Shown: one piece after another, positions 168 to 34,428 of the stretch | How positions within the stretch are numbered: position 1 is the first letter of the stretch | Layout of the letters: the number at the start of each line of letters is the position of its first letter | Sequence record: SRR2962707_2659 | Strand: one strand, 5' to 3' | DNA length: 39,947 nucleotides | Position numbers and translations under genes: made by a program | Notes under the pieces: model-generated | The model's input: only the letters and a program-made list of their open reading frames with translations | Database searches by the model: none | Told to the model about the DNA's origin: nothing

Positions 168-200
168 AATCGTCTGGAGCCCCACCACAAGAGGCACAGA

Positions 201-1349: not shown

Positions 1350-1449
1350 AAGAAATTTCTAGACTTTTTCAGCTTGCTTCATATCTTCCTAGCAAGACTC
1401 TTCTCCTTTTCCCTCTCTCGCTTTTTTCCCAAAAGAGGGATCATGAAAA

Positions 1450-1665
1450 TTGGTCAATTACGAAGAACTGCGGACGGTGAAGCAACTGGCCGCTGAGGCA
1501 CAGTTCGTCACCGAGGCAAAACTGCGCTGGTGGATTTTCCACGCGGACACAAACGGTCTCAACGCTGCCCTGATCAAGATCGGCGGGCGCGTCTATATCG
1601 ACCGGGCGGAGTTCAACAAGTGGCTTGAGGCCCAGCGCCTCGCCCCGAAAGCCTCCGCCGCCTAA
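1450..1665 (+). CDS. Putative excisionase / recombination directionality factor 1
   Basis: 71-aa basic wHTH-like protein (TVKQL..LRWWIF..IGGRVYID..FNKWL) right after integrase; TTG start 9 nt after GAGGGA. Confidence 0.8.
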   Translation: MVNYEELRTVKQLAAEAQFVTEAKLRWWIFHADTNGLNAALIKIGGRVYIDRAEFNKWLEAQRLAPKASAA

Positions 1666-1692
1666 CGGCGTAAACAACTGGCCGTCCACAGA

Positions 1693-1723
1693 GCCCCGCC
1701 CTTACCGGCGGGGCCTTTAATTT
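1693..1723 (+). terminator. Intrinsic terminator after excisionase 1
   Basis: GCCCCGCC-CTTACC-GGCGGGGC followed by CTTTAATTT, between convergent genes. Confidence 0.65.
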
Positions 1724-1763
1724 CAACAAGTGACAAATTTGAAGTGGGTTAGAACACCAGCGA

Positions 1764-3905: not shown

Positions 3906-3911
3906 CTACTT

Positions 3912-6900
3912 TTACCCTTCACCTGCATCGGCATCGAGTTCACTCACGCGCCCAATTTGGCGTCTGACGATACGCAGTGCTTCGGCAATCAGTTCTTTGT
4001 CCTCTGTCCCTTTGGCTTTGGATGAACCAAAAGGCCTGGCGGCCAAGAAACGCCCTGCCTCATCTATATCGCGCAGGGACATCATTGGACGCTGACCGAC
4101 CGGCGCCCCTTCCCAGTAGTCGCTGAGCAGGGTCGTAGTGTTCTCAGTGCGGAATTCATCAGTTAATTGCTTCGCAAGATTCCGAATACGGTTGTCGTAG
4201 TACTCAGAATGCGGTGCCGCACCGATACCGTTAGCGCCTCGTCCAGGCACACCAAGGGCCAGAACGGCAAATTCCATGAAGTCTTTGGCTGCACCAGGAA
4301 GGTCCGAACCGGTCATCAGGCGATTTACATCATTGACGGTGTTAAAGATCGGAGCGCGATCCTTGTCGTCATCTGCTCGCTCCATGAACAGCTTCTGCTC
4401 AGCCCACCCACAAAGCCACGCTTGAAAGAGGCTGGTTAGAACCCGATCCTGCGCGCTTGCTGCCCACCGCGTGATGGCCGGTGGCGCAATCATTCTCTCC
4501 AAGAAACGATGGAAAACATCATGCGTTTCGACGATATATCTGTCTCGACGTGCGTGCGGCGTGGGAATAAGCAGGCTAAAGCCAACATGAGTACGGCCCA
4601 CACGAGAGGAAGCCTGAATAAACTCGGCAATGTCATTGGGCATTCCCGCAAAGAACATCGCGTTGAACTTGTCCACATCAACTCCGTGAGAAATTGCGGA
4701 GGTGGCAACAATATTACGCAGTAACTGCTCTAAGCTGGGGAAAGGTTCACCGGGGCCGCTTCCCGCTTCGGCTTCCCGCATAATTTCCTGAATCTGGGCG
4801 ACATCAACGCCACCGGAAATCAAGCGCGTATGAACTTGCGTGAGCGTCCGAGAATATCGGCGGTGAAGTTTTGCCACCTCTTCTCTGAAAGCATCAATGA
4901 CCTGATCGCCGCCTTTTTTGTTTGTTACATAGGTCAGTGATATGCGCATGAGGTCCAGAAGAGAGGGCAGAATGCTGGTATCCCGTTTTGCACAATCGCG
5001 GATCGCCCTCGCGTGAAAACCCGATAACGGAGTGCCAACACTGAGGGCGCTCAAGATACGGTCGACAGCGACATCGCGGCGCTCGCTACCGAGCAAATCC
5101 TGCCAAAGCTCCGTTATGGCGAGGTGGTATGCCGCAAGGACAGCAACCGTCGTAACGGTATGATTGCGCCCGTTGGTCATGATCGATGCATATACACGCA
5201 TCCACGGCGCTTCTACTTCCGGGGCACGAGGACCGCCACCCCCAAGACCACGCCGTTGTGGGTCAGATGGCACCGCTGGAACGGCGTAAAAAGATCGGTA
5301 AATTGAGGTTCCCGGATAGGGGAAATGCATATGGCGGCGTTGATATAAAGCGCCAAACTGTTGCTGCGGCACACTCACCGTTGCAGTCGCAGCTACCACC
5401 TTCGGGAGGCGGACTGATTTCGATCCGTAAGGGCTGCGCGCGACTCGATCTCCCAGAAGATCGGACGCTCGTACGAACAATTGTTCCAAAATGGTTTCGA
5501 AGAGCCCCGCAAAAGTCCCGAGACTTTCTTCAAGCAAATGCGCTTCATCTTGAATTATCAGAGACGGGAATGGGTCTGAAAATACCTCGCGACCGTCCTT
5601 GTATGCCGGAGCAAGCGGCTCACAGCCATTCGCAGCAGGCCCCTCTTTGAGCATTTTCCGGGAAGGCATCACAAGGCGGCCTGTCTCGCGTTCCTGCCAA
5701 CGAGCTAGGCCAAACATACTCATCACGCGATTAATGGTGGCCGGATGCTGGCCGATCAAGGCCAGCTTATCAATGACCCCAAGCAACACGGACGGCGCGT
5801 GGCGATAAATGTCCCGATCAACGATTAGGAACGGGAGCGCACTTCCGTCTGTCTCCCGATTCCATGCACAAGACTTATTGAAGCAAACAGTAGCGATTTC
5901 CTCGCCTGTGACATAGGAAATGCGCCTTAGTCCTGTATCCTCCTTGCAAATCGGACAAGCGGGAATCTTATTGAAGCTTTCATTGACCTCACGGTAGTCC
6001 GATCTGAGATTATCGTCATTCTGGTGCTTGGGGTCTTCGAGACGAGGAACAGGATCAAGCCGTGGGTCATCCGATCGGTTCGGCGTATTGCCTTTACCGA
6101 CCCAGAACCCGATCTCAAAAGGCTGCCCTCCGATCGCGGTACGGCGGCGGAACAGTTCCGCGCGCATGAGCAACGCGAGCAACCGTTGCGCTTGTTGAAG
6201 GGTCAGCAACCTCAAAGGATACCGTATGAGTGCAGTGACGCCGGTATTCTTCCCGCGCAAACGATCAAGGAAGAGATTAAAGATCAAAAGGCCGAAGAAC
6301 GCTTCAGACTTGCCACCACCAGTCGGAAAATACAGAAGGGTCGCCGTTTCCTCATCAAACTCCGGATCGAACCAAGGGCTTTTTGTGTACGCCGCCATTC
6401 GCGACGCAACTGTCGGGATATGCGCAAGAACAAATGCCATTTGAAAGAGTCGCCAGCTCTCTATTCCACGGGCCCTGCCGGCATCCTCGAAAGTCTTGTT
6501 AAGAAGCAACCAGGCCCTGTAGGGAAGTGCTTCGGGGCACGTTGAATCACCTTTGAAGTGTGTGTAAGAAAATTCGAGAAGCTCAATGCCCAAGGCGATC
6601 CGCTGTGCTTCGCGCCTGTAACTAGCAATGTCCTGTCGAAACTTTTCCCGCTCCCGGTCAGCTTCGCCACTGTCAATCACACCATGTGCGGGATCGATGC
6701 TCCCTTCTTCTCCGGCAATCCATTCACTGTAAGCATCCACAAACGGACGAAGTCTTACCGGGTCGAAGCCATCAGCACCAAGCACGTTGAACTGCGTTGG
6801 CACATCTTCAATCTCGTTTGGCACAATGCGCGGTTGTTGGTAACGCGGCATCCAGGTCGTAGCGAGATGCAGGCGCTCACCTTCACGTGATTCAACAACA

Positions 6901-8159
6901 CCGCAGTTAATGCCAATCGCCGGATAAGAGAGAAAGTCACGGAACCGGTACGACGCTTCCACCCGGTCGAGATTTAACGGGCGGTGGACGGCAGCCGGGA
7001 GGTCAATGGCAAGCCGAACTTGATGAATGGCGTGTTCGAAACGCTCACGCCTCCGCTTGGCAACATCCTTGCTATTGTTCTCAAGTATAACCCGCAGGTT
7101 GTTGCGGCGCTTATCTCGAAGATCGCTGTCAATCTGAATGACGAGCAACAAGCCGTCTAGGTTAGGGGCTACATCATTGATTGCAGGCATCGTCTTGCGG
7201 AGGTCTTCCAGAAACGAATTCCAGGTTTGCTCTGAACGGTAATGGCTAGGCCTAACTGGGGCGGGCCTGTAAGCCCACATCCGGCCCTCGTCACTTTCCA
7301 GCCACACTTTCACCGTCTGCGCGACCGCGCGTCTCATAGTATTTTTCGTCCACTCATCGACGATGGCTTGCAGCCCTACACCGTCCGAAAGCTCCAGCGA
7401 CAGCGGAGGAAGGTCTATTGAGAGACGCCGCCACTTTTGCGGAATGTCTGTCTCCTGAGCCGCCTGGTCGTTCTCGAAAATATATCGGCCACGCTGCGCG
7501 CGAAGGCGTCCGGCTTCGTTGCCCAAGGCATCATTCTGCCCATCCCCGCCTGCCTCTGGCCCATGTCCATCCGACGTATCGGCTGTTTCCTCTGAATCAG
7601 CGATCCACCCGTCGTCAGACAATGTCACTCCATGCTCAGCAAGTAGTGCCCGAAATATTTCCTGTTGAAGGTCGCGCTGAGACTGCCTTTCGTCTTCGGA
7701 TTTTTCAGCTTCTTTTGCCTTAACAGCGGCAAAGCGGGACTTCATTTCGTCCCGAATATGCTTCTCAAGCTCTTTGCGAATGGGCGGGTTCGGAAACAGA
7801 TCCAATTCTGGTCGGTTTAACTCTTCCCAGTCCGGCAGCGCGCGCACATAAATTGCAAAGTCGATCTTGATACGAAACTGCCCCTGCGCATCGGCGGCGA
7901 TCTGCAAGTCGATACCATGCGTGCTCAGGTGAATGTCGGATGTTTCGTCCTCTTGGCCGGTTTCCTCATATCGTGGCAAGAGAAATCCGGAGACAAACCG
8001 TAGCGATGGCTTCGCACCGAAAACAGTCATTCCATCAATGCCAGAACCGCTAGCCCGCTCCCAGGTCAAGTTGAGCAACGCATCGACAAGCCCCTCTTTT
8101 GCGTCGGCCAAGCGAGTGGCAATATCCGGGTCAACTTTTCTAAGATCAGCAACTCTCAT
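3912..8159 (-). CDS. SF2 helicase, DISARM DrmA-like, 1415 aa
   Basis: WRLFQ, PTGGGKSE, YPLRLLT, DEAH, ATAT, ATSAISHGVDV, QASSRVGR; start moved to ATG 8159 (ATGA overlap with upstream stop, GAGG RBS). Confidence 0.88.
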   Translation of the reverse strand: MRVADLRKVDPDIATRLADAKEGLVDALLNLTWERASGSGIDGMTVFGAKPSLRFVSGFLLPRYEETGQEDETSDIHLSTHGIDLQIAADAQGQFRIKIDFAIYVRALPDWEELNRPELDLFPNPPIRKELEKHIRDEMKSRFAAVKAKEAEKSEDERQSQRDLQQEIFRALLAEHGVTLSDDGWIADSEETADTSDGHGPEAGGDGQNDALGNEAGRLRAQRGRYIFENDQAAQETDIPQKWRRLSIDLPPLSLELSDGVGLQAIVDEWTKNTMRRAVAQTVKVWLESDEGRMWAYRPAPVRPSHYRSEQTWNSFLEDLRKTMPAINDVAPNLDGLLLVIQIDSDLRDKRRNNLRVILENNSKDVAKRRRERFEHAIHQVRLAIDLPAAVHRPLNLDRVEASYRFRDFLSYPAIGINCGVVESREGERLHLATTWMPRYQQPRIVPNEIEDVPTQFNVLGADGFDPVRLRPFVDAYSEWIAGEEGSIDPAHGVIDSGEADREREKFRQDIASYRREAQRIALGIELLEFSYTHFKGDSTCPEALPYRAWLLLNKTFEDAGRARGIESWRLFQMAFVLAHIPTVASRMAAYTKSPWFDPEFDEETATLLYFPTGGGKSEAFFGLLIFNLFLDRLRGKNTGVTALIRYPLRLLTLQQAQRLLALLMRAELFRRRTAIGGQPFEIGFWVGKGNTPNRSDDPRLDPVPRLEDPKHQNDDNLRSDYREVNESFNKIPACPICKEDTGLRRISYVTGEEIATVCFNKSCAWNRETDGSALPFLIVDRDIYRHAPSVLLGVIDKLALIGQHPATINRVMSMFGLARWQERETGRLVMPSRKMLKEGPAANGCEPLAPAYKDGREVFSDPFPSLIIQDEAHLLEESLGTFAGLFETILEQLFVRASDLLGDRVARSPYGSKSVRLPKVVAATATVSVPQQQFGALYQRRHMHFPYPGTSIYRSFYAVPAVPSDPQRRGLGGGGPRAPEVEAPWMRVYASIMTNGRNHTVTTVAVLAAYHLAITELWQDLLGSERRDVAVDRILSALSVGTPLSGFHARAIRDCAKRDTSILPSLLDLMRISLTYVTNKKGGDQVIDAFREEVAKLHRRYSRTLTQVHTRLISGGVDVAQIQEIMREAEAGSGPGEPFPSLEQLLRNIVATSAISHGVDVDKFNAMFFAGMPNDIAEFIQASSRVGRTHVGFSLLIPTPHARRDRYIVETHDVFHRFLERMIAPPAITRWAASAQDRVLTSLFQAWLCGWAEQKLFMERADDDKDRAPIFNTVNDVNRLMTGSDLPGAAKDFMEFAVLALGVPGRGANGIGAAPHSEYYDNRIRNLAKQLTDEFRTENTTTLLSDYWEGAPVGQRPMMSLRDIDEAGRFLAARPFGSSKAKGTEDKELIAEALRIVRRQIGRVSELDADAGEG

Positions 8160-10813
8160 AGCTGCGCCTCCGACACATTGGACACAACCGTTACAACATG
8201 GTGCTCGGCTGTCTCGTAGATACGCCATACGTCGTGCCGCCGCTCTTCGGACAAACGCGATGCTGTGCCATGAGGATCAATAAGGATACCCATGAAAACT
8301 TGATGAAATGAGGCTCCGCTCCGTATTCGCATCGACCGTGTCCAGAATATTCCCCAGTCCCAGTAGTGTCGCGCAACGTCCTCGCTTACTCCAAGCGCAC
8401 GCATAAAGCATAGATAGTGACGCCGATCCCTAGGAGCCTGCGGCTTGACCTCATTCCGTGGCGCGCCAAGAAGATCAGCGACATCTATCCAATGCCGGAT
8501 AGCTTGAATCGTCGGCAGATTCAGAGACGGATCGAGTTTCATCATGCGCTCGCGAAGTGCGGACGCCTTCCCGGTCATGTCGGCACCGGGCAGCGAGAGC
8601 GCTGCGTCGACAACCGCTTTATGATAAAGTGGCAGAATCTCTGAGGCGTTGGCTGAGAGATTTAGTTTTTCCCGGGCCATCCCAACAAAATCCGGACTGA
8701 ACACACAAATCTGATCCCCTGGGACCAAGTCCTTGGCCAATTTTCGCGAGAAGACTTGTAAGGCTTCCGAATCGTATGCGGCGACTTCCGTCCCATCGAA
8801 AGCCTTGATCTGTAGATCGCCTGTTGTAGCAATGACGCGCGGTGTGCCGGAGCCTGGCGTAGCAGACGTCGTCAGGTCAAGTGTACCGAGACGTGGTACC
8901 GACGGCTCGGCGTCAAAATCAGGAACTTCAATAACTCGCCCTTCCAACGCGCGTTCAAATTCATCTTTAACAACATTCAGCTTTTCCAGGATTGCCTCGG
9001 CACCTTCGAGGCCACGCAAGATGCGGACGCGCCGAAGCGTCTGCTCGGCCAATGCAAGATTCGATAAAACAACAACTTTGTCAGGCACCCATGGCCGCAT
9101 GAGGACATGAAGAAGATCATCCGAATACGGCTCAACGAAAACAATTCTTTGGAAGAGTTTCTGTTCTTGTTGGTCAAGTTCCAGCTCTTCAATTGCCTCG
9201 CGACGGTCGACGAACAACAGTTTCCGGCCAAGTTTTGGTTGAACTTGAGATAGCGCCGGGTCAGTTTCAACGCGCCACTCGGCAAATCCACGCAAAAGTT
9301 CGCTGGAAAAGACGACAATGGATTTTGTTGATTTCTGAGTCAGCCCCTTTACGCAATCGTCAAATAATTTTCGCCCTGGATTGCGGTCCGCCGCTATTTT
9401 GCAGAGCTTGTCATACGCTTCGAGAAACTGTGAGAGCTTCTTGTGATTGATTCCCGCAAGGCCCTGCTGAAGCGCCACTTTGATCTTACTCCGGGGCGCC
9501 AAATGGTCGTACCGCGCACCCATGCTGTGCCGTTCATACCCTTCATAGTTTTCAGCGAGAAAATCGTGAAACTGCCGCGGTGATCCGGGAAGACCAATAA
9601 GATTCTGTACGACCTGCATTGCCGTCGTAACGGCATCAGCAATCTCTTCGTCACCTGAATTGAGAAGCGACTTCCGGAGCCCCAGAGCAAATTCAACAAT
9701 TTTGAGAATATCAGAACCGTACACCTCAGCTGTGAACTCTGCTAAAGTGCCTTGCACCACAGGTTCTTGATCCAAAGGGTCGGGCTTGGTGTTGAGAACA
9801 AGACGGGCGGCGGTCGGTCTCTTCGAAGTTCGCTCTGCACCACGACGGACGTCATAGTCCTTTATAATCTCCCACCGAAGTGCTTCCAGAACAAATGCAT
9901 CATCTGTAACCGCCAAGACTGGCGGCACCTTATCTGTATACAGATCATTTAGCAGGCTTAGAAAGCGCCTTACCGGCTGCCGCCACTTCTTCCGGTCTAG
10001 ACGATTGCGACCACGGCGCGTCAGATCAAGTAAAACAACGTCGGGCAAGCGACCTCCATGTCGCGGATCAAGACCCGCGAGTTGAAGCTGCTTGATGCGC
10101 ACCGCATCGGCGTGAACTCCGAAAAGAAAGAAAGGCGCTCGGCGGGAATCGGCAGCGGCCTCTATATGTTTTGGTTGCTCGCCAATCCAGGTATGACGCC
10201 GTAGTCGCCGAAGAAACTGGTCATCATACGGACGCAACCCAGAATTCTGAACACCGTGCTGAGGCGTAATCTCAAATAGCGAGGGGTGTATGAGACCGGG
10301 GTTTGTCTTTAGCGCCTTCCTGAACCTCGTGTCGGGTTTCCCGCTCACAAAAAGATGTTTGACGCTATGCAAAGCCATGAGATAGCCAAACGCTGGATGC
10401 TGATTCACGTTCAATACCCGGTTGAGCGCTGGCAACGTGGCCTTCCAAATATAATCCCGATCTACAAGCAGCGTCCTTTGAGTACCCCCCGTCCCCCGGC
10501 TCCAGGGAAAAAAGAGGGTTGCGAAACCGGAGCTGTCGCACTCTGCAATACGATTAAGCGCGGCCAATGCGTGAAATACAGCGACGCCGTCAGGCCGTTG
10601 CGGCCAAAGAAGAAGAACTTCACTCCTTCCAGACTCCATGGCGCCTTCGAATGCGCGCAACACCTCCTCGGTCGGCTTGCCAAGAGCAAGCTCCACATCT
10701 GGATCGCTTGGACGACGGAAGATAATGTCGGCGACCTGAGCCGATGTGTTTCCAGAATTGATCGGCTCTCCAGGTGGAGAAGCGGTGAAAACCTGCTGAC
10801 TATCCGACATCAC
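8156..10813 (-). CDS. Large protein of unknown function in defence operon (possibly DrmE-like), 885 aa
   Basis: Long ORF overlapping both neighbours; no catalytic motif recognised. Confidence 0.8.
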   Translation of the reverse strand: MMSDSQQVFTASPPGEPINSGNTSAQVADIIFRRPSDPDVELALGKPTEEVLRAFEGAMESGRSEVLLLWPQRPDGVAVFHALAALNRIAECDSSGFATLFFPWSRGTGGTQRTLLVDRDYIWKATLPALNRVLNVNQHPAFGYLMALHSVKHLFVSGKPDTRFRKALKTNPGLIHPSLFEITPQHGVQNSGLRPYDDQFLRRLRRHTWIGEQPKHIEAAADSRRAPFFLFGVHADAVRIKQLQLAGLDPRHGGRLPDVVLLDLTRRGRNRLDRKKWRQPVRRFLSLLNDLYTDKVPPVLAVTDDAFVLEALRWEIIKDYDVRRGAERTSKRPTAARLVLNTKPDPLDQEPVVQGTLAEFTAEVYGSDILKIVEFALGLRKSLLNSGDEEIADAVTTAMQVVQNLIGLPGSPRQFHDFLAENYEGYERHSMGARYDHLAPRSKIKVALQQGLAGINHKKLSQFLEAYDKLCKIAADRNPGRKLFDDCVKGLTQKSTKSIVVFSSELLRGFAEWRVETDPALSQVQPKLGRKLLFVDRREAIEELELDQQEQKLFQRIVFVEPYSDDLLHVLMRPWVPDKVVVLSNLALAEQTLRRVRILRGLEGAEAILEKLNVVKDEFERALEGRVIEVPDFDAEPSVPRLGTLDLTTSATPGSGTPRVIATTGDLQIKAFDGTEVAAYDSEALQVFSRKLAKDLVPGDQICVFSPDFVGMAREKLNLSANASEILPLYHKAVVDAALSLPGADMTGKASALRERMMKLDPSLNLPTIQAIRHWIDVADLLGAPRNEVKPQAPRDRRHYLCFMRALGVSEDVARHYWDWGIFWTRSMRIRSGASFHQVFMGILIDPHGTASRLSEERRHDVWRIYETAEHHVVTVVSNVSEAQL

Positions 10814-12581
10814 GCCCTCCGTTCACCGAATGGGGCGGCGGCCTTTCAGCAGCGCTTCTGGCAACAGAGCGAATATAAGCCTGCGCGGCGGCCTCCTCGT
10901 CTTCGTTGCCAGCGGCAAATGCTTTCTGCACCTCATCTGCGGCGGGGAGGGGAAGCTGCCGCAGCAGTTTCGTTGATATACTTACGGAGCCAGAAATCCT
11001 TCGGAAGCGCGCATCGACTGCTGCCGTATTGAGAAGGCGGCAAAGCATCTTTAGTGAAATTGCCTGCTTCTTGCCGGGAGCCGGAACAACAAGAATGGTG
11101 TGGTTTTCGCTGACGAAGCCACGCCGACCTGGCACTTTAGACTTGCGGACAATTCCGGCGATCAGGCGACGCTTTTGTTTCCGATTACTTGTCCGCTGAA
11201 GAAGTATCGCATCAGTCTCAACGATGGCCGTGCTGCGGTGATTTATTTTCACAAAACCGACTCGTCCGCTGTTGTCATCCCGGTCACGAGGCTCACAGAT
11301 CGCATCAGGCACAACGTTGTGCGCCCAAAACAGCGGAACTTCGTTTGCTCTCGGTTTGAACCCGGTACGATAGCGGTCCTGCTCGCGGTTCCAGACAAAG
11401 TAGCCAGCCTTGGCTAGATATCCGTAGTCCTCAAGCGTCTGCAGGCCATCCTGAAAAAAGCTGTCGCTTTGAACCCCATCGGGCAGCGCCCAAATTCGTT
11501 CACCTGCGTCTGCTGGAAGATCAATACGCCCCAGATTGCAGGGCGATTCATCAATCAATAAGCGCGAACTAGCGGCTGCATCTTTAGTTGCCCTACCGCC
11601 TTTCTTGCGCAACACGAGGACACAGACGTCGTATAGAACATCAATGAATAAGTCGCTGCGTTTATCAATGGGGTCGAGGCGCAACACATAGGACGCTTCA
11701 AGGATGCGCTTTCTCAAGGCAGCAAAATAAGCGCCTCCCACGAAGGACATCGGAACGATAAGGCAGATCAGCCCGCCGGGGCGCACCCACCGCAATGCTT
11801 GCTCGACAAAGAGAGCGTACAGGTTGACATACCCGTCATTAATCACGGGAGCAAAACGTGTAGTGAGCGCCGCGGAGGGACGAAGAACGCGACCGTAAGG
11901 CGGATTTCCAACAATCGCATCATAGAGACGCGCAGGCGGGTCGAGTTTGAGCGTGTTCGCACGCTTAAGCGAAATATCTAGGCGCCGACGCGCTGCAGTC
12001 AGTTCCGGAGCGAGTAAGTCGGAGAGCAATATGTGAGATAGCTCAGCTAGGCGAGGTTCTATCTCCACACCGGCAAGCGTTGACTCAATAGAATGGAGGA
12101 TCGTCTCTGGAGCCGTATCTTTCCGACGCGAGCTGTATGCAATCCTGGCGGCAAGAGGAACTAGAAACGCCGCTCCGCCGGAAGCGGGATCGAGTATGCG
12201 ATGTTTGCCGGGCTCGATGCCTGCTTCGAGTAGAATGTCGAGAACGTAGTGAACCAAATGGGGCGGTGTGAAATAGGCCGCGAGGCGTTGCCGCCGTCCT
12301 ACGGGCATCAATAAGGCGTATAGGCTTGAAATCCAGTAGTGTTTTTCTGCGGGACGTAGACCAGAGAAAAATTCTTTCGCTCGCGGATCGACCAAGCAAT
12401 CTTCGACAACAGCCCTACAAATCTGTAGCGGAGACATTTCGGAGTTTTGCAGTGACGTTGCTATCTCACGAAGGTCGCGCAGTCGCCGCCTACTTACTGA
12501 CAGCGGACTTGTTTCGCCTATGTCCTCTAGGTTTGCCCACTCATGATATGAACTCACATGTTGGGCGTTTCCAATTTTCAT
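10800..12581 (-). CDS. N6-adenine DNA methyltransferase (gamma class), 593 aa
   Basis: YFTPP, ILDPASGGAAFL (SAM binding), GVEIE, IVGNPPY catalytic motif, C-terminal target-recognition region. Confidence 0.93.
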   Translation of the reverse strand: MKIGNAQHVSSYHEWANLEDIGETSPLSVSRRRLRDLREIATSLQNSEMSPLQICRAVVEDCLVDPRAKEFFSGLRPAEKHYWISSLYALLMPVGRRQRLAAYFTPPHLVHYVLDILLEAGIEPGKHRILDPASGGAAFLVPLAARIAYSSRRKDTAPETILHSIESTLAGVEIEPRLAELSHILLSDLLAPELTAARRRLDISLKRANTLKLDPPARLYDAIVGNPPYGRVLRPSAALTTRFAPVINDGYVNLYALFVEQALRWVRPGGLICLIVPMSFVGGAYFAALRKRILEASYVLRLDPIDKRSDLFIDVLYDVCVLVLRKKGGRATKDAAASSRLLIDESPCNLGRIDLPADAGERIWALPDGVQSDSFFQDGLQTLEDYGYLAKAGYFVWNREQDRYRTGFKPRANEVPLFWAHNVVPDAICEPRDRDDNSGRVGFVKINHRSTAIVETDAILLQRTSNRKQKRRLIAGIVRKSKVPGRRGFVSENHTILVVPAPGKKQAISLKMLCRLLNTAAVDARFRRISGSVSISTKLLRQLPLPAADEVQKAFAAGNEDEEAAAQAYIRSVARSAAERPPPHSVNGGRDVG

Positions 12582-13024
12582 ATCAATTTTCTTAATAGCA
12601 TTGTCTGTTGATCTTTAATTGTTGAATCCACTGCGCGATTTCAGGCCACTGCAGCCCGCCGGCCGCCCTCTACCTCTAAGCCTGGTAGGTGACATCAGAC
12701 GCTAAACAGTACACAGATTTATCTGCGATCCCGAAGCATTCAGCAGCCGCGTTGGCCATCAGCAAGTCGGCGACCATTACCCCCATCAGCCCCCAACCGT
12801 GAGAAAGTACGGGAAAAGCGGACGGCTCCTAAGACTCCATGAGGAACGCGCTCGCGCCCAATCCACACAATCAATTCGTAAAAAATATTACATGTGTGCG
12901 CAATAAAGTCCAAGATTGAAAATACTTATTCTTTCCACTTCAAGTAAATCAGTCTTATTTCTCTGCGCCTCAGGTGCCGCCGCCATAAGCCCGCATCAAC
13001 CCGGAACTTATGGAGGTTTTTGCT

Positions 13025-14560
13025 ATGGGGAACTTACGACCACTGATTTTTCTGATCGCCAGTGTGTGGCGGCATCTGCCGTTTGTCGCCGCGCCGATTG
13101 GGTATCTGGCCTTTGCTGGGCCGGTGCATCATGGCCTTGTTATGGGGGCGCTGTTCGGCCTCTCAGGGCATCTGACGCGGCTGACCGTCACCGGTATCCG
13201 CTTGCGGTTCTTTCCGCACAAACCTAGCCACGGCTCGGCGCGCTTTGCGACGATGGACGAACTTGCCGCTACCGGGCTCTTTAAGCCCGGCGGTGTTCTG
13301 CTCGGCCGCGCCCATGGGCGCATGGTTCGTTACAGCGGCCACGGGCACCTGCTCACCTTCGCGCCGACGCGCAGCGGCAAGGGCGTGGGGTGTGTGATCC
13401 CGAACCTGCTCTCCTGGGAGAAGTCGGCCATTGTCACCGACATTAAAGGCGAGAACTTCGCCATCACCCATGCCCACCGGCGAACTCTGGGCCCGGTCTA
13501 TGCCATGGCCCCATTCGCAGAAGACAGCGAGAGCGCCCGCTACAACCCGTTCGACTTCATCCGCATCTGCACGCATTACGAACTGGATGACGCGCGGCTT
13601 ATCGCGGAAATGTTGGTCGCCCCAGAACAAGCGGAAGCCAACCACTGGGAGCGGGAAGCGCGAACGCTGATAACCGGCCTCGTGCTCTACATCCGGCGGC
13701 AATGTCTGGTCGGCAAACGCAACCCGGCATACCTGCGCGAACTGCTGATGGAAGATCAGGAAGGGTTCGAGCTGGTCATACAAAGGATGTCGAACAGCGA
13801 TATCGACACCGTCGCCCGTATAGCCCGGGGCTTTTCCCAGAAGGAAGCCAAGGAACGCTCGGCGGTTATCTCCACCGCACAGGCGGCAACGGCGGTCTTT
13901 GACAGTGAGCCACTGGCAAAGCTGACAGAGTGGTCCGACTTCGACCTGGAGGAACTCAAGGAGAAGACGGGCACGCTCTATATCATCGTGCCGCCTGAGC
14001 ATCTGGAAGCCTACCGGCCCTTCATGCGGCTGATGGTGGGCCTGAGCATGGCCGCAATGACGCGGCGCGGCACCAGCGAGGCTAATCAGGTTCTCTTCCT
14101 ACTGGATGAGCTACCCGCCCTTGGCTACATGCGCCCTATCGAAGAAGGCATCGGCTACATGGCTGGGTACGGCGCGAAGCTGTGGCTCTTCGTGCAGGAC
14201 TTGAATCAGTTGGAGAAGGTCTACCCGAAAGCCCGCTCGATGATCGCCAACTGCGCGGTACGCCAAGCCTTCAACGTGCAGGATTCCGGCACGGCACGTT
14301 TGCTGTCCGACATGCTGGGCGTAACCACGGTCAAGGTGAAATCACAAGGCCGCTCGTCACCGCTACCGATGAACCTGCTGCCGGTGGCATTTCACAGCGG
14401 CCTCTTTGAGACGGCGCGACCTCTGATGACGCCGGACGAAGTCAGCACCCTGTCTCGCGACCAGCAACTGCTGTTCGTGGAAGGCCTGCACGGCATGGTG
14501 ACGCGCAAGCTGCGCTACTTCGACTGGCAGGAATGGCAACTGCGGCGGCGCGCGCAATAG
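13025..14560 (+). CDS. Type IV coupling protein 1 (VirD4/TraG family), 511 aa
   Basis: GGAGG RBS; hydrophobic N-terminus; HGSARFA, APTRSGKG, DIKGE, YNPF, LLDELPALG, QDLNQL, RPLMTPDE. Confidence 0.93.
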   Translation: MGNLRPLIFLIASVWRHLPFVAAPIGYLAFAGPVHHGLVMGALFGLSGHLTRLTVTGIRLRFFPHKPSHGSARFATMDELAATGLFKPGGVLLGRAHGRMVRYSGHGHLLTFAPTRSGKGVGCVIPNLLSWEKSAIVTDIKGENFAITHAHRRTLGPVYAMAPFAEDSESARYNPFDFIRICTHYELDDARLIAEMLVAPEQAEANHWEREARTLITGLVLYIRRQCLVGKRNPAYLRELLMEDQEGFELVIQRMSNSDIDTVARIARGFSQKEAKERSAVISTAQAATAVFDSEPLAKLTEWSDFDLEELKEKTGTLYIIVPPEHLEAYRPFMRLMVGLSMAAMTRRGTSEANQVLFLLDELPALGYMRPIEEGIGYMAGYGAKLWLFVQDLNQLEKVYPKARSMIANCAVRQAFNVQDSGTARLLSDMLGVTTVKVKSQGRSSPLPMNLLPVAFHSGLFETARPLMTPDEVSTLSRDQQLLFVEGLHGMVTRKLRYFDWQEWQLRRRAQ

Positions 14561-14575
14561 GCGCGCGCCCCTGCT

Positions 14576-14971
14576 TCACTTCTGCGGCCACTTTGGATAG
14601 CGACCACCTGTGGAGACCACATAGGCCATGACGAAAACAAGTGTACCAAGCATGATGGCAACCCAATCGCCACCATCCATACTAGACTTGTACGGATAAA
14701 GCGCAGTCCAAACCAGCGTCATAACGAGTGCCGAGAGTGCGAAGACGCCCATGATTTTATAACCGCGCCGCCTCAGGAAGCGCGTGTACTCTTCCAAAAA
14801 TTCGTTAGGGCCCATGCTCGCATAGGTGCTGTTCGGCGCTTCACGCTTGATACGTTCGTAGTTGGCGGCGGCTACCTTGCTCGCGCGCTCCTCCGTTTTA
14901 CGGCGTCCCATGGACGACAGGATCGCCAAGAGCACCAAAGCCAAAAGAAAAAGAACAATGAACAGAAGCAT
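14576..14971 (-). CDS. Membrane protein with about 3 TM segments, 131 aa
   Basis: Three hydrophobic stretches; GGGG RBS. Confidence 0.75.
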   Translation of the reverse strand: MLLFIVLFLLALVLLAILSSMGRRKTEERASKVAAANYERIKREAPNSTYASMGPNEFLEEYTRFLRRRGYKIMGVFALSALVMTLVWTALYPYKSSMDGGDWVAIMLGTLVFVMAYVVSTGGRYPKWPQK

Positions 14972-14988
14972 TACTTCCCCCTACCTTC

Positions 14989-15051
14989 CTATCGGGTCAC
15001 GAACACCGCTAGCACCAGCACCGCCAGAACCAGAATGATGATCAAAAGCAT
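14989..15051 (-). CDS. Putative 20-aa single-pass membrane peptide MLLIIILVLAVLVLAVFVTR
   Basis: ATG after AGGGG; fills gap in same-strand cluster; resembles N-terminus of next gene. Confidence 0.45.
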   Translation of the reverse strand: MLLIIILVLAVLVLAVFVTR

Positions 15052-15104
15052 AGAAGCCCCCTGCCTGCCGCCGGTGCGGCAGAAGTTTCGGCACCAAAAT
15101 TGAG

Positions 15105-15533
15105 TTACGGATTGCCCACGACAATCTTGAGTTTGTCGTCGGACATTTTCGCGATGTAGATGCCGGGAATGCGTTCGAAGTAGCCCTTCCGGGTTGTCTC
15201 GCCGCTGATGATCCACTTGCCCGGTGCGACTTCCTCGGCTTTCGTCCCAGCCAGCGTCTCCGCGTCGTCCCATTCGCGGCAGCTTCTCGCAAGTTTTGCC
15301 GCACTCGACGGGTGCGTCCGCAAGCGGACGAGACCCTCTACGTATTGCGCAGCTCCGTAGCCCGGCGCCATGTACTTGGACGTGAGTTCTTCTTTCGATT
15401 GGGAGCCACAGTAAGCAGCCTTCTCAAACTCCACATAGAATCCGCTTGGGGTTTGCGACTCCCCGCAACCCGCGAGCAACACGGCTCCCGTCACTGACAA
15501 CACCGCCGCACTGCGGCTCCACAAATTCTTCAT
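15105..15533 (-). CDS. Lipoprotein, 142 aa
   Basis: GGGAG RBS; signal peptide ending in lipobox LLAG-C. Confidence 0.8.
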   Translation of the reverse strand: MKNLWSRSAAVLSVTGAVLLAGCGESQTPSGFYVEFEKAAYCGSQSKEELTSKYMAPGYGAAQYVEGLVRLRTHPSSAAKLARSCREWDDAETLAGTKAEEVAPGKWIISGETTRKGYFERIPGIYIAKMSDDKLKIVVGNP

Positions 15534-15570
15534 GACTCCCCCCATTGGGCTTGCAAGAGAACGTCGGTGC

Positions 15571-15966
15571 TTACTGGGCGAGTTCTGCCTCGCACTCCAT
15601 TCCGGCACGCGCGCCTTCACCGGCGTACTGAGCATTGGCTTTCCTTAATTCAGCTTCCGACATACCGGTCCTCTCCACCGCCTCCTGCACGGTTGTTGCG
15701 CCATCGACCGCCACCGTCAGCTTCACCCACGTTGAAAAATCTTCCTTGCTGAGGTTGGCCTTCATCTTGTCGAAGACACATTCACATACGGCCTCTTCGC
15801 CGCCCATCTGAGCGCACCCCGACATACTCATCTCTTTAGTGCGCGCTTCGTCAGCGGCGGTGTAGCTCGCCTGCTCTTCGCCACAAGCGGCGAGTGCGAG
15901 CGCGCCCAACGCGATGGCCAGCACTTTCAAGCCGAGCGGCTTGGTGTTCATAGATTGAGATTTCAT
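15571..15966 (-). CDS. Lipoprotein, about 131 aa
   Basis: Signal peptide with lipobox LALAA-C; Cys motif C..CEC..C. Confidence 0.8.
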   Translation of the reverse strand: MKSQSMNTKPLGLKVLAIALGALALAACGEEQASYTAADEARTKEMSMSGCAQMGGEEAVCECVFDKMKANLSKEDFSTWVKLTVAVDGATTVQEAVERTGMSEAELRKANAQYAGEGARAGMECEAELAQ

Positions 15967-16019
15967 CCGTAGACCTATTGGTAGTGTGTTCGGCTGAACA
16001 CGGAGCGTTGAAGAATGGA

Positions 16020-16044
16020 GTTACAGAATCCCCAATTCGGTCAC
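16020..16044. repeat. Left recombination site (IRL) of small recombinase
   Basis: GTTACAGAATCCCCAATTCGGTCAC: imperfect palindromic arms around asymmetric core; inverted copy at 16711-16735. Confidence 0.8.
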
Positions 16045-16082
16045 TGCACCCACGCGAACCTGTTAGGCTGGATAGATATGAA

Positions 16083-16697
16083 ATGCCGCATAAGGGAGAG
16101 ACCGAGTTCAACAATGATCACCACAAGCAATGGAGCCTGTACGACCAGTCCGGCCACCGAAAATATCTGACAGCCAAAGAGCGCCGCGCCTTCATGGCCG
16201 CCGCTGCCGAGCGCCCCGCAGACGTGCATGCACTCTGCTGGCTTATCGCCGAAACCGGCTGCCGCCTCACGGAAGCATTGGAGCTAACCGCCGACCGGAT
16301 CGATCCAAGCCGGGGCGTCGTGATCTTCGAGAGCTTGAAGAAGCGGCGGAAAGGCATCTACCGGGCGGTGCCGGTGCGCAAGGAACTGATCGCCGCGCTT
16401 TCCAGCATCGCCCAGGGCGACAAGACCAGCGCTCTATGGAGCTGGTGCCGCATGACGGCCTACCGCCGTATCACCGAAACGATGGAGCTCGCGAAGGTCT
16501 CAGGCCCTCACGCCAATGCGCGCGGCCTCAGGCATAGCTTTGCTATTGCCGCGCTCGAAGCAGGCGTCCCGCTCAACCTCGTGCAGCGCTGGCTAGGCCA
16601 TGCAGACATGGCGACAACCGCCATTTACGCCGATGCGATTGGTACGGAAGAACGCAAATTAGCGAGCCGACTCTGGAAGGCGGAAATGGGAAAATAG
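16083..16697 (+). CDS. Small catalytic-domain tyrosine recombinase (FimB/FimE-sized invertase-like), about 204 aa
   Basis: TGCRLTE, GLRHSF, LGH, TTAIY; lacks arm-binding domain; start uncertain. Confidence 0.88.
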   Translation: MPHKGETEFNNDHHKQWSLYDQSGHRKYLTAKERRAFMAAAAERPADVHALCWLIAETGCRLTEALELTADRIDPSRGVVIFESLKKRRKGIYRAVPVRKELIAALSSIAQGDKTSALWSWCRMTAYRRITETMELAKVSGPHANARGLRHSFAIAALEAGVPLNLVQRWLGHADMATTAIYADAIGTEERKLASRLWKAEMGK

Positions 16698-16710
16698 GGG
16701 GTTGATTTGT

Positions 16711-16735
16711 GTGACAAAATTGGGGATTCGGTCAC
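16711..16735. repeat. Right recombination site (IRR) of small recombinase
   Basis: GTGACAAAATTGGGGATTCGGTCAC; reverse complement matches IRL 21/25 with identical GAATCCCCAATT core. Confidence 0.8.
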
Positions 16736-16765
16736 ACCGCGACACTAGCACTTTGCCGAACAAAT

Positions 16766-16798
16766 GAAAGAAGCCGCCCCCGAAGGGGCGGCTTTCTT
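16766..16798. terminator. Probable bidirectional terminator
   Basis: AAGCCGCCCC-CGAA-GGGGCGGCTT with T-rich tails on both strands, between convergent recombinase and relaxase. Confidence 0.75.
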
Positions 16799-16816
16799 CG
16801 TTCCAAACTCGTCGTT

Positions 16817-18520
16817 TCAGAAGCGCGGCCCCGGCATCTCCCTCTCCATCTCTTTCACTTTCTCATTCTCCCGGCTGCGTTCCTCATACTCGTGGAGCGC
16901 CCGCACAAGTTGGCGTTTGTAGTCGTAGGCATAGTTGCTCGCGCGGATGGCCTTCTCCGTCACCCGTGACAGGGCTGCGGCGCGGCGCTCAAGCGCCCTT
17001 CCCAGCATCTTGTGCAAGTAGGCGTCGGTGCCGGTGCGCTGGTGGATCAGCTCAAAGTCTCGTTTGGCGATCTTCACCTGCCGGCGGCCGTCTTCGATCT
17101 TGTCGTTCCAGTGGCTAACGTCCTGCTGCGCCCTGCGCCAGCGGCTGCGCCGGTGTTTGAGGTAACGCAGAGACACTTCCGCCTTCTTGCGCGTTTCATC
17201 CTTGGCGATCCCGACATTCAGGCCGCGCAGACCTCCGGCGAGGCCGGGCTTCTCCTTGAGCATGCGGGCGGTTTCTTCAACGCCGAACTGCGCTTCCATC
17301 TTCATCCAGATACGCTCGGCCTTGGCCGGGTCTTTGAACGTGACCGTAAGCGACTCCCGGAAGCTCTCGCGCCAGCGTGTTTCAAACTTCGTCGCGCGGT
17401 CATGCCGACTGTGGGCGTAGGCCGCATCCCGCTCGGCGCGGAATAGCCGCCTCTCGCCATACCGGTAGTGCGCGTCCAGACCTTTCCAGTAGTGGACGGC
17501 CATTTGCGCGTGATCGAGTTCGGTCATGGCGTCTCTGGTCTTCTTGCGCGCGACCCGCTCTTCCGCCGCGCGAAGCCGGTCGGCGCGGCGGAGTTGCGCG
17601 GGCGTCATATTCTCGCTGCCGGGGATGGGGTGCTTGCGCTTCTCCGCCGCCACAAGTTCGTCAATCCGCGTCAACTCCCAGTCGTCAAACGTCTCGCCGA
17701 ACCGTTCCTCCAGCTCCGTAAGCCGCACACCCTTGCCCATTTGCGAAAGCTTGGCCGCTTCGTCCCCGCGCACCAGCACGAGGCCCCGACCCTTGCGCTG
17801 CAACTGGAGGCCATACGCCCCAACACGCGCGGACAAGTCGGCCCATGACGTGGCGTTGTAGAAGTGCGGGGCCACCCTCTCCCGCAGTGATTTCACATCT
17901 TCCCAGTTCATATCCGGGATGGGCGGGCGGTTGTTGCGCCGGGCCAGCCAATACTCGGCGTCCGTCACGGTGGCGCGAGTATCGCCAAAATCTTCCTGTA
18001 GCTCTTGTTCTGGGATGCGGGCTTTGTCCCGCCCGCGTTCTTTGGCGATGTTGAGGTCGCGCTCGCGGGCGATCTCGCGCACCAGCGCCGTGAGGCGCTT
18101 GCCGTCATTGTGACGGCTGTAGGCTTTGCCGGTCTGCGGATGAATCCGGTTCACTAGGAAGTGGATGTGCGGATGCTCGGTATCCCGATGGGCGTAGATC
18201 AGAGCTTGATAGTCGCTCAGGCCAAGGCGCTCGATGGCGTCAAAGGCGATCTCGCGCATGATGCCGGGGTCAACCTTCCTGGCCTTGGCGTCTTTCGGGT
18301 CGAAGGCCAGCACGAAATGGTAGGCCGGGTTGCGGCACCGCGTGGACTGGGCGGCGGTCGCCGCCATCACAGCGGCGGCGGCTTCGGGATTGTCAGTCTG
18401 AAGGTTGCGCGTCTCAACCCACTCGACGCGATCGGGGCTGAGCTTGGCGGTGTTGCCCGACAGATAAAGCGCCGATGCGCGAAAATTTGCAGGCTGCTTT
18501 TTGGGGATTTTGAAGCGCAT
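16817..18520 (-). CDS. MOBP (VirD2-like) relaxase with BID-like C-terminal region, 567 aa
   Basis: N-terminal Tyr (ALYL), YHFVLAF, HRDTEHPHIHFLVNRIHP; C-terminal KDP..PGLAGGLRG..G..K..RKKAE. Confidence 0.92.
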   Translation of the reverse strand: MRFKIPKKQPANFRASALYLSGNTAKLSPDRVEWVETRNLQTDNPEAAAAVMAATAAQSTRCRNPAYHFVLAFDPKDAKARKVDPGIMREIAFDAIERLGLSDYQALIYAHRDTEHPHIHFLVNRIHPQTGKAYSRHNDGKRLTALVREIARERDLNIAKERGRDKARIPEQELQEDFGDTRATVTDAEYWLARRNNRPPIPDMNWEDVKSLRERVAPHFYNATSWADLSARVGAYGLQLQRKGRGLVLVRGDEAAKLSQMGKGVRLTELEERFGETFDDWELTRIDELVAAEKRKHPIPGSENMTPAQLRRADRLRAAEERVARKKTRDAMTELDHAQMAVHYWKGLDAHYRYGERRLFRAERDAAYAHSRHDRATKFETRWRESFRESLTVTFKDPAKAERIWMKMEAQFGVEETARMLKEKPGLAGGLRGLNVGIAKDETRKKAEVSLRYLKHRRSRWRRAQQDVSHWNDKIEDGRRQVKIAKRDFELIHQRTGTDAYLHKMLGRALERRAAALSRVTEKAIRASNYAYDYKRQLVRALHEYEERSRENEKVKEMEREMPGPRF

Positions 18521-18523
18521 CCA

Positions 18524-19114
18524 TCACCTCCCCCCGCGTGACGGCGGCTCGTGAGACGGGCCCGGAGATTGCGCGCCCTCTTTCGGCGGCTTGCCTGCGT
18601 CCTTGTTGGCGGTTGTTGGTGCCACTGAGGCTTCATGCAGTGGCTCCAGCGCTGCGCGCATAGCTTCGAACGCTTCGTCGCGAAGCTCGCTCGGCACATC
18701 GTGGCCGCTGTTGGCCATATGCGCCAGCCGGTTGACCGTGTGCCCGGCCGTGTTGAGCGGCTCGATCTGGGCCTCGATCATCTCAGCGAGATCGTTGCGG
18801 CCCAGCAGTTGCTCCACCAACTGCCCGCCTGTGTACCGCGCCCAGCGGGCGTAGACCTCTTCGCCGGTTACGTCCGCCAGCTGCTGGAAGTTGGTCGCTG
18901 CCGATTGCAGCTCGTACAGCAGCTTCTGAAAGATGATGAGCTGCGCCGGGCGGGCGCGGGGGCGTTTACCCAGAACCGTCTCCCGCGCATAGCGCCCGAA
19001 AGGCATCCCAGCGGCGGCAGCATGGGTCTTGAACTGCGCCAGCTCCGCATCCGTGAGGCGGATATTTACAACGTGGCGGCGCCTGTCGGCCGGGCTCTTA
19101 CGCGGCCGTGCCAT
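18524..19114 (-). CDS. mobC: MobC-like ribbon-helix-helix relaxosome accessory protein, 196 aa
   Basis: VNIRLTDAE..AAAAG..YAR; between oriT and relaxase. Confidence 0.85.
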   Translation of the reverse strand: MARPRKSPADRRRHVVNIRLTDAELAQFKTHAAAAGMPFGRYARETVLGKRPRARPAQLIIFQKLLYELQSAATNFQQLADVTGEEVYARWARYTGGQLVEQLLGRNDLAEMIEAQIEPLNTAGHTVNRLAHMANSGHDVPSELRDEAFEAMRAALEPLHEASVAPTTANKDAGKPPKEGAQSPGPSHEPPSRGGR

Positions 19115-19304: not shown

Positions 19305-19514
19305 TCCCTACTGAAACAAAGTTTCTTCTTCCACTGTATGGAGTTACGCGGGAACCAAGGAACATGTGCACTCAAACACTAGCAATAAAAAGCCTACAAT
19401 AACAACACCCATATGGGACCGCCAACACCTCTCAATGCCCATCAGCAAAGATTCCCGATGTCAGGCGCAAAGCGGCTGACAGGGGTCCGCGCTGGGCTAA
19501 TGAGAGGTTGGCAG

Positions 19515-19596
19515 CACAATAAACGAGTAAATGATTGACACAATAAACTAATTGATGTACAACACAATAAACTAACTAATGAACAACACGATAAAC
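19515..19596 (+). repeat. Four direct repeats CACAATAAAC with exact 24-bp period
   Basis: Copies at 19515, 19539, 19563, 19587 (last CACGATAAAC), ending 15 bp before fic start. Confidence 0.9.
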
Positions 19597-19611
19597 GAAT
19601 TGACCTAAGCC

Positions 19612-26871: not shown

Positions 26872-28131
26872 TCAGAAATTAAACGGGGCCTGATTCAGCA
26901 ACGGCCTAGTGCGCACGAATACATTACAATGCCGAATGGCCCGCGTGACCCCATTGTAGAGCAAACGCGCCTTTTGCTCGTCACTCCCCCTAACTCCCGG
27001 TGGCCACAGCAACACAACATGATCGAATTGACGGTTCTTGGCCTGATGAATGGACATCACGGGAATGCCGTGGGTTTGCTGGTATCCATAGGCCCTGTGG
27101 TGTGCCGCCTTGCGCTCTACCAATTCGCTCAACTCAGCAACGCTCCAAGAAGCTCGACCTTGTGCTTGAACCGCTTTGACAATCGCATTTTGTACGCTCG
27201 AAACCCACGGTGGAGGGTCAACGATTGCCGCCAGTCTATCCAAAGCCACACTGGTATCTAATGCTCCCATCCCGTCGAACGCGGCAAGAACTGCCTGCTT
27301 CTCTTCATTGTTCCGATCCTCGTGGATGAGTTTCAGAGGAGCGATGATTCCGTAACCCTTCGACTGCATACCCTGAGCTGCGCGTGCAATGATCTCATCT
27401 GCCCAACTGCGCCCCGAAGGGCCATAGATTAGAGCCCTAGTTCCTGCTACGCGCGACAGAGACGACACCACGGCAAACGGCATGACATTCTTGAATTTGT
27501 GCTCAATCCTGAGACCGTCACCAGATTGCGGCGATTGAAGATTCCGAAGCGCAACCCCTGCTTCAAGAAGACCTTGCTTCCCCGTCCGCCGAACAACGTT
27601 CAGAGTATCCACCCTACCCGTCGCGAACCATTCCAAAAATGGTGCCGTATCAAGTCCCTCATCCAGACATTGAAATTCGTCAGCCGCTACGAAAAGTGCG
27701 ACGTACGGCGCAAGAGCCTTGAGAATTCGCAATCGCTCAGGTTTCAACTCCTGAGCTTCGTCGACGACAATCACCGGAAAGGTACGCGCTACCCATTCGG
27801 CAATGACGGGGACTTCGAGCAGTTGACCGCAAATATCACAGGTCTGGTCGAAGCCGTCCGCCTGAAGACCGTTTGCAGCCGCGAATGAGCACCATCTTTG
27901 AAGGACCGACTGCGCGAAGCTGTCGATCGTCAGGCAGACGGCCTTCCCCCTCATAGCAGCAATATCGCGGAAACGACCGTCGAGCCGCTTTCGTGACCCG
28001 TGCATAAAGGTGAGTGCCAGCACACGCTGGTGCGGTTGCAGCGGACGCTGCACCAGATACTGCCCGACCTCTTCAATAAGTCGGTGCGTCTTGCCGGTGC
28101 CCGCCGGGCCTTCAAATCCTCGGAACGGCAT
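26872..28131 (-). CDS. UvrD-like SF1 helicase (Gabija GajB-like), 419 aa
   Basis: GPAGTGKT, LTF, TIDSF, DEAQE, D.FQ, SIHQAKNRQFD, YNGVTRA; overlaps OLD gene by 20 nt. Confidence 0.88.
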   Translation of the reverse strand: MPFRGFEGPAGTGKTHRLIEEVGQYLVQRPLQPHQRVLALTFMHGSRKRLDGRFRDIAAMRGKAVCLTIDSFAQSVLQRWCSFAAANGLQADGFDQTCDICGQLLEVPVIAEWVARTFPVIVVDEAQELKPERLRILKALAPYVALFVAADEFQCLDEGLDTAPFLEWFATGRVDTLNVVRRTGKQGLLEAGVALRNLQSPQSGDGLRIEHKFKNVMPFAVVSSLSRVAGTRALIYGPSGRSWADEIIARAAQGMQSKGYGIIAPLKLIHEDRNNEEKQAVLAAFDGMGALDTSVALDRLAAIVDPPPWVSSVQNAIVKAVQAQGRASWSVAELSELVERKAAHHRAYGYQQTHGIPVMSIHQAKNRQFDHVVLLWPPGVRGSDEQKARLLYNGVTRAIRHCNVFVRTRPLLNQAPFNF

Positions 28132-29935: not shown

Positions 29936-29944
29936 CCTGCCCCC

Positions 29945-31255: not shown

Positions 31256-31506
31256 TAAAAGATGCCCTCAATATCGCTGTGAGACCCTTTAGTGCGCGGC
31301 TGAATGACAACCTCAAGATCGAGCGCGCGCAGTAAATCCATGACGGTGCTGAGCTTGACGGTTTCGAGGCCGGTCTCCACCTGAGAAACTGTCCCCTGCC
31401 GTACCCCTGCCCGCTTAGCTAATTCGGTCTGAGTAAGGTCATGCGTACGCCGAAAACGACGCAATGCGACGCCGAGCTGCTTTGGTGATCTGACGAGTTC
31501 CGACAT
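31255..31506 (-). CDS. hipB: HipB XRE-family antitoxin, 83 aa
   Basis: LTQ.ELA..AGV.Q..VS..E HTH; stop overlaps hipA start. Confidence 0.93.
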   Translation of the reverse strand: MSELVRSPKQLGVALRRFRRTHDLTQTELAKRAGVRQGTVSQVETGLETVKLSTVMDLLRALDLEVVIQPRTKGSHSDIEGIF

Positions 31507-31533
31507 GACATAATTCCCACTTGTTTTGAGAAT

Positions 31534-31605
31534 TATACGTCATAGCGTATATAACGTCAATATCCGTTATAGCGTATAATATTACTTTATCACCTAGAGC
31601 GTATA
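31534..31605. promoter_or_regulatory. Three HipB operator-like 18-bp palindromes, 27-bp period
   Basis: TATAC-N8-GTATA (31534), TATCC-N8-GTATA (31561), TATCA-N8-GTATA (31588); resemble E. coli HipB operator TATCC-N8-GGATA. Confidence 0.8.
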
Positions 31606-31635
31606 ACAGAGCATAGCGGCCGAAGGACTGACAAA

Positions 31636-34403: not shown

Positions 34404-34428
34404 GTGTCGATCCTCCTTTTGCGGTTGC

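Follow-up and report, generated by a model that had tools for sequence, protein, structure and literature searches.

In the Salmonella flagellar switch, the hin gene lies wholly inside its invertible segment, which is bounded by the inverted sites hixL and hixR and carries a promoter that drives surface genes outside the segment in one orientation. In the fimS switch of E. coli, a promoter is inverted beside surface genes by FimB and FimE, tyrosine recombinases of about 200 aa that comprise the catalytic domain only. Cre/loxP-type sites have palindromic arms on either side of a spacer whose asymmetry determines direction. For a recombinase within its own segment, the accessible text of PMC9368917 provides the precedent of Hin, and recombinases 'near or inside' invertible regions are described in the accessible part of PMC9881135. 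In the pdif modules of Acinetobacter Rep_3/OrfX plasmids, inverted sites bound shuffled cargo, according to the available sections of PMC13141974 and bioRxiv 10.1101/2024.04.09.588662. The rarity of a self-enclosed recombinase implied by the original prediction for the locus described here was thus overstated, given Hin and the wording available in PMC9881135. The kind is already known, Hin being a self-enclosed invertase; the tyrosine-recombinase cassette family itself appears to be without description in the literature searched. A search of main texts that reached a minority of the subscription journals returned no publication on this recombinase family, which the inverton catalogues in the supplements of PMC9881135 and PMC11892184 could include; the accessible parts of PMC8138268, PMC11892184 and PMC11551731 do not describe it.

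The window, that is, the whole 39,947-nucleotide stretch of record SRR2962707_2659 that was analysed, carries a tyrosine recombinase gene (16083..16697, plus strand) tightly bracketed by two 25-bp sites. Site A, the recombinase-proximal site (16020..16044, plus strand), is built of a 10-bp arm, the 5-bp spacer CCCCA and a second 10-bp arm, and site B (16711..16735, minus strand) is its inverted partner with an identical spacer. Together they span a segment of 716 bp, with gaps of 38 bp between site A and the ATG (16083) and 13 bp between the stop (16697) and site B, and they are identical at 21/25 positions, including a 12-bp identical core. The coordinates, sequences, core, gaps and length originally given for two 25-bp inverted sites were all confirmed, and the two flipped junctions predicted at that time are those obtained by in-silico inversion. 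The segment has the defining arrangement of an inverton, a stretch between inverted recombination sites whose recombinase gene lies close by or within it. We read the cassette as an inversion switch that is self-contained, strongly biased and likely to activate a hypervariable lipoprotein cluster, with sites that in relatives also bound exchangeable modules, and on the comparative evidence from sequence we put the probability of this reading at roughly 0.7.

The two sites agree at only 21/25 positions, as a fortuitous repeat might, but the idea of a chance match can be practically dismissed. The pair ranks first among 176 inverted pairs in a repeat search over 10-22 kb of the window, and site A has the highest position-weight score in the window. 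Among 400 random window pairs of equal spacing, 21/25 was reached only by the draw that fell on the locus itself, and none of the other 399 exceeded 18/25. The chance explanation is refuted by the near invariance of the sites in relatives and by the family-wide pairing described below. Across 12 aligned close copies, variable columns number 1/25 and 2/25 in the sites versus 135/515 in the gene body, and the inner gaps of 38 bp and 13 bp are almost invariant. L005 and L020, which represent one haplotype, carry the same single-base spacer substitution in both site A and site B, as expected if strand exchange needs matched spacers.

The recombinase has 204 aa and consists of the catalytic domain only (PF00589, E=1.2e-20; 74.4 bits versus a Pfam cut-off of 27.1), this being its sole Pfam match. 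Its profile matches XerA/XerD structures at E of about 1e-15 to 1e-20, and it scores under every NCBIfam cut-off and far below XerC/D, integron integrases and FimB/FimE. The catalytic residues are R61, K86/K87, R150, H173 and Y182, and the Arg/Lys/Arg/His/Tyr set is invariant in 38-39/39 aligned homologues. The first box-II His position is occupied by K in 31/39 and by R in 8/39 homologues, with R in the window protein; a change at this position is tolerated in other tyrosine recombinases. With a pN/pS of 0.05-0.11 against 11 close copies, the sequence comparison indicates that the gene is under purifying selection. The protein resembles FimB and FimE in size, domain content and the promoter inversion beside surface genes that is predicted for it, but it falls far short of their models (PRK09870 and PRK09871; 21 and 31.5 bits versus cut-offs of 221 and 222), has K/R at the first box-II His position and is associated with palindromic two-arm sites. 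In several relatives the layout is that of Fim, the gene lying outside and its two upstream sites being separated by about 130 bp, whereas the window gene lies inside the switch. Hin shares the enclosed gene, the inverted sites and the one-directional segment promoter proposed below; however, it is a serine recombinase that needs a Fis enhancer, whereas the window cassette encodes a tyrosine recombinase, uses 10-5-10 sites, resides on a mobilisable island and has a lipoprotein cluster as its predicted target. Compared with Cre/loxP, the window system has shorter arms and spacer, lacks an N-terminal core-binding domain and carries two inverted sites hugging the gene.

The predicted target lies beyond site A. 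It begins with a gene for a 131-aa lipoprotein (15571..15966, minus strand) with a LALAAC lipobox, conserved cysteines and a hypervariable body, followed by a second predicted lipoprotein (15105..15533, minus strand; LLAGC lipobox), whose containing ORF is without a Pfam/NCBIfam family match, and ends with two small membrane-protein ORFs (14989-15051 and 14576-14971, minus strand). The first lipoprotein falls into 8 clusters at 62-95% identity, and its body ranges from 62% to 99% identity among copies with recombinase genes that are 89-95% identical. Its structure model is all-alpha (pLDDT 81), with no fold match in the PDB (Foldseek E>0.5; best Z 5.1) and no Pfam or NCBIfam match to the sequence; in the search for a function, the best Atlas score was 0.89, to unnamed clusters (7 representatives). 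A role as entry exclusion factor was considered, and no support was found for it. The cysteine-rich body (about 15551-15844) swaps between allele types on otherwise 90% identical islands, and the stretch 14590-15100 is replaced in X2 and X3. Upstream of the lipoprotein start, a palindrome at 15987-16002 with 6-bp arms and a 4-nt loop has invariant arms and a variable loop in 12 copies; an operator and a 5' RNA hairpin are both conceivable roles for it.

Around the cassette and the lipoprotein cluster lie genes of the host element: a VirD4/TraG coupling protein (13010..14560, plus strand; PF02534, E=1.4e-88), a MobA/VirD2-type (MOBP-like) relaxase (16817-18520, minus strand; PF03432, with NF041893 below its cut-off) and a NikA/MobC-like protein (18524-19114, minus strand; PF21983). 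Immediately upstream of a Fic-domain gene, 3-4 AT-rich 24-bp tandem repeats at 19512-19603 are possibly its operator array. The stretches 159-12581 and 26872-38209 form a composite island with two further integrases, HipA, ArdC, a second VirD4, DrmA/DrmB-like (DISARM-like) genes with a methyltransferase, and an OLD/UvrD (Gabija-like) pair. Six Parvibaculum or Alphaproteobacteria genomes carry the same block at 93-97% aa identity, and the host is for this reason probably Parvibaculum-like.

A terminator hairpin lies outside site B (16771..16794), with a folding energy of -27.4 kcal/mol for the region 16761-16805. Its stem is kept despite sequence changes in relatives, and its T-tail is conserved on the relaxase strand. 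The terminator toward which the recombinase gene was originally said to point is present as a hairpin, but it is called only on the minus (relaxase) strand, and the plus-strand T-tail is lost in most relatives. The hairpin is possibly bidirectional; given a T-tail conserved on just one strand, that of the relaxase, its main role may be to protect the cassette against read-through from the relaxase gene. Within the segment, TG-n-TAnnnT at 16061..16069 (plus strand) is a candidate for the recombinase gene's extended -10 promoter element; L091 and L194 have it at the same distance from site A as the window does. A promoter consensus scan of 14500-17200 found none, the element at 16061-16069 included. 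An outward TTGAC promoter within site A, present in other clades, was without counterpart in the window's clade, and that model was not transferred.

In the mechanism we propose, the recombinase would bind the four 10-bp arms and exchange strands across the matched spacers, and inversion would flip the recombinase gene together with the predicted internal promoter. In the assembled orientation, this promoter would read away from the lipoproteins toward the hairpin beyond site B, which would represent the resting, probably OFF, state. After inversion, it would stand head-to-tail with the lipoprotein and membrane-protein genes and read into them, with the lipoprotein at 15571..15966 likely the first target gene of the switch. 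The -35 region would lie under the inner arm of site A, where bound recombinase would cover its own -35, and the resulting autorepression is the likely source of the resting-state bias.

The pairing of sites around a recombinase gene is a feature of a large family. At E<=1e-20, 1,548 proteins match the recombinase. An inverted partner site, defined by at least 18/25 matches and an identical spacer, with arm features learned from the sites, accompanies 31/59 homologue hits (58 loci, which are not independent), compared with a direct partner in 1/59 and partners in 0/223 control windows; the filter missed pairs that were found otherwise at L045 and L057. In a later sample at phylum level, 8/9 additional loci are minimal site-gene-site cassettes of 696-761 bp. 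Spacers are matched within each system and differ between systems. Four layouts recur: the gene enclosed alone, the gene enclosed with 1-9 kb of cargo, two upstream sites separated by about 130 bp, and, on small plasmids, one site only. Single upstream sites are found in the plasmid relatives L041, L048 and L050 and likewise in L125, L195 and L196, and several plasmid homologues adjoin parA and repA; with palindromic arms, an asymmetric spacer expected to set direction and single-site relatives beside plasmid partition/replication genes, the family in this respect resembles Cre/loxP and plasmid resolution integrases.

In many systems, an envelope or signalling gene, often secreted or a lipoprotein, starts just outside one site, and in several of them the start is only 14-22 nt from the site, which leaves no room for a promoter of its own. 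The adjacent secreted/lipoprotein gene and the recombinase gene point away from each other in the window's clade (window, L091 and L194) but are head-to-tail in L051, L052, L053, L092, L197 and the GAGCA clade. L052 has the full order of the window (mobC, relaxase, cassette, lipoproteins) with the cassette reversed, at a different spacer and 50% identity. The head-to-tail arrangement with the lipoprotein cluster that had been foreseen as the flipped state thus exists in other systems (L051, L052, L092), but was not seen at the window locus.

Several further arrangements within the family deserve mention in their own right. Sphingomonas/Novosphingobium homologues in plasmid records (L045, 3944-4787; L043, 3900-4846) lie within matched inverted sites and are divergent from an EAL gene; Csu-type pilus genes are found at L045, the sister locus of L043, and the two are good culturable test cases. 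In Bryobacterales, L011 and L013 carry arrays of 2-3 direct sites with the same or similar spacers near homologues, an arrangement whose sequence suggests excision or integration, not inversion. At L053 (G308:C1, 5378-10040), one secreted-protein gene cluster lies between two convergent homologues, which differ in spacer and are each accompanied by a separate inverted site pair. Orphan single sites without a nearby recombinase occur at L241 (G968:C354) and L235 (G1016:C287), and the L241 flank recurs in that genome on the outer side of site A at L222. Pattern scans of viral contigs returned 27 single sites without a close recombinase and 0 matches to window-type arms. Transposition of the minimal cassette in the manner of an IS found no support: 4/5 genomes had a single copy and G968 two divergent ones, and a simple crossover between inverted sites cannot excise the cassette.

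Within the window's own lineage, a single orientation prevails. The assembled orientation is found in all 12 aligned close copies (the window and 11 loci, with 10 distinct cassettes) and also in one further partial locus with site A only. No strand-change joint was found in the 8/8 contig-level runs examined (of 22 runs); in X2, X3, X8, X13 and X15, one contig spans both junctions (depth 342 in X2). The window itself may come from X1. Because contigs drop rare variants, this single orientation is a sign of bias and not of absence. A metagenome pattern scan matching all four junction forms recovered 10 stretches from 6 contigs, none of them flipped, and no second junction for the window's left site was found in 5 close genomes. 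The orientation is the same throughout the window's clade (window, L091 and L194; support 98/90), whose members are about 57% identical in aa sequence, and a single orientation is likewise common to all 7 complete systems with the GAGCA spacer. Family, order and class searches around G332, G308, G222, G675 and G823 recovered no second, oppositely oriented copy of any known system. Phage records gave no match at E<=1e-20, and plasmid DNA matches to the window were partial only.

The opposite orientation is seen in a homologous system. A flank comparison of 27 enclosing systems from 28 loci yielded 4 same-orientation pairs and 1 flipped pair across genomes, formed by L220 (G1013) and L221 (G1094), whose recombinases are 91% identical, share the same spacer and are 47% aa identical to the window protein. 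Over 976 nt, the flank next to site A in L220 is 78% identical to the one next to site B in L221. The site is where the homology switches, the distinctive outer arm remains with the opposite flank, and in a direct DNA search the L221 junction splits into two opposite-strand pieces in G1013. Both loci are known from assembled genomes, and the second flank is not common to both (IS21 genes lie there in L221), so that a crossover from A to B between elements would give the same picture as inversion. Whether by inversion or by crossover, the sequence comparison indicates that sites A and B are interchangeable in this system. At L224 (G940:C59), inverted identity runs 97 bp past both sites at 100%, which could be left over from the assembly of mixed orientations or represent a genuinely longer repeat.

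As for the original prediction that the switch flips its own gene, recombination-type sites, matched spacers and the occurrence of a homologous self-enclosed cassette either way round beside one flank speak in its favour, whereas the window lineage shows one orientation throughout its copies and contig-level runs. The uniform orientation would fit a switch that is locked in this lineage, with site A retained as an autorepression operator and either site used to resolve multimers of the element after its excision or transfer, and the single-site relatives, including those beside parA and repA, are consistent with such uses. However, one site would be enough for resolution or repression, so that the matched spacer in the second site is left unexplained, as are the joint spacer change in L005 and the flipped pair L220/L221. 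We consider the locked switch improbable, the least likely of the alternatives apart from chance, and retain the biased inversion switch as the preferred reading.

A second use of the sites, which lay beyond the view of the original prediction, emerges from relatives that carry different contents between matching flanks. In the GAGCA clade, L082 and L083 have about 100% identical flanks over 7.9 kb left of site A and 3.2 kb right of site B (3,199/3,200 nt); between the sites, the recombinase end just inside A is 72% identical, and the cargo is unrelated. For L084/L087 and L086/L087, the outer sequence is about 90% identical from site B on, and identity drops to about 50% inside. L197 and L198 hold two different Gabija-like pairs between matching sites, and cargo enclosed elsewhere includes a SIR2-STAND-TPR protein and an LmuB-like ATPase; in the cargo of the other loci, apart from L197/L198 and one protein in L009, 11/16 proteins are metabolic or without a PADLOC match (1e-15). 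Eight minimal cassettes, 68-84% identical, are found in mostly unrelated flanks. In relatives, such sites would be crossover points between elements, and the segment they enclose would be swappable as well as invertible. Sites and breakpoints of this kind recall the pdif modules, in which, from the parts of the two pdif sources available, accessory modules lie between inversely oriented sites, both inversion and exchange depend on matched spacers, and mosaic breakpoints fall at the sites. The same sources attribute pdif recombination to host XerC/XerD at asymmetric sites with a 6-bp spacer, whereas the present family has a module-encoded recombinase, symmetric arms and its own 5-bp spacer in each system.

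These mosaics raise the alternative that the sites serve mainly for exchange between elements, with a crossover at one site joining two islands and a crossover at the other resolving them, so that the module or a flank is swapped and inversion is a rare by-product. The identical flanks around different contents in L082/L083, the drop in identity at site B with L087, the alternative Gabija-like pairs of L197/L198 and the minimal cassettes in unrelated surroundings would all be expected, and cointegration followed by resolution is the model for pdif in the accessible text of PMC13141974 and bioRxiv 10.1101/2024.04.09.588662. However, the A. baumannii study (bioRxiv 10.1101/2024.04.09.588662) did not, in its available part, itself observe cassette exchange, and L083 has a scaffold gap at site B (G426:C19, 12608-12960) with both edges ending inside the site. 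Breakpoints of the pdif type are seen in the GAGCA clade and L197/L198, whereas the window cassette has no cargo, and in its clade there is no pairwise-identity step at either site. Exchange would also leave unexplained the envelope gene that recurs beside one site. As an account of the window cassette, we therefore regard predominant exchange as unlikely, though less so than a locked switch, and continue to favour the biased inversion switch with exchange as a further property of relatives.

A broader proposal, about which we are tentative and slightly more doubtful than confident, is that these systems form an undescribed, widespread family of portable one-gene modules, each with a catalytic-domain-only recombinase, an inverted pair of 10-5-10 sites and a 5-bp spacer of its own that acts as a barcode. 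Such modules would both flip to switch on outside envelope genes and exchange anti-phage cargo (Gabija, SIR2-STAND) between mobile islands, making them a counterpart of pdif that catalyses its own recombination without Xer, as well as a collection of orthogonal minimal recombinase-site pairs. If the interpretation is correct, the 0.7-kb unit would be a self-limiting switch for hypervariable surface lipoproteins on mobilisable islands. The sites would also explain the precise replacement of defence cargo between related islands, which is usually seen as hotspots without a mechanism. With its numerous small recombinases, defined 25-bp sites and differing spacers, the family lends itself to direct tests in laboratory E. 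coli and may be of use for inversion and cassette exchange.
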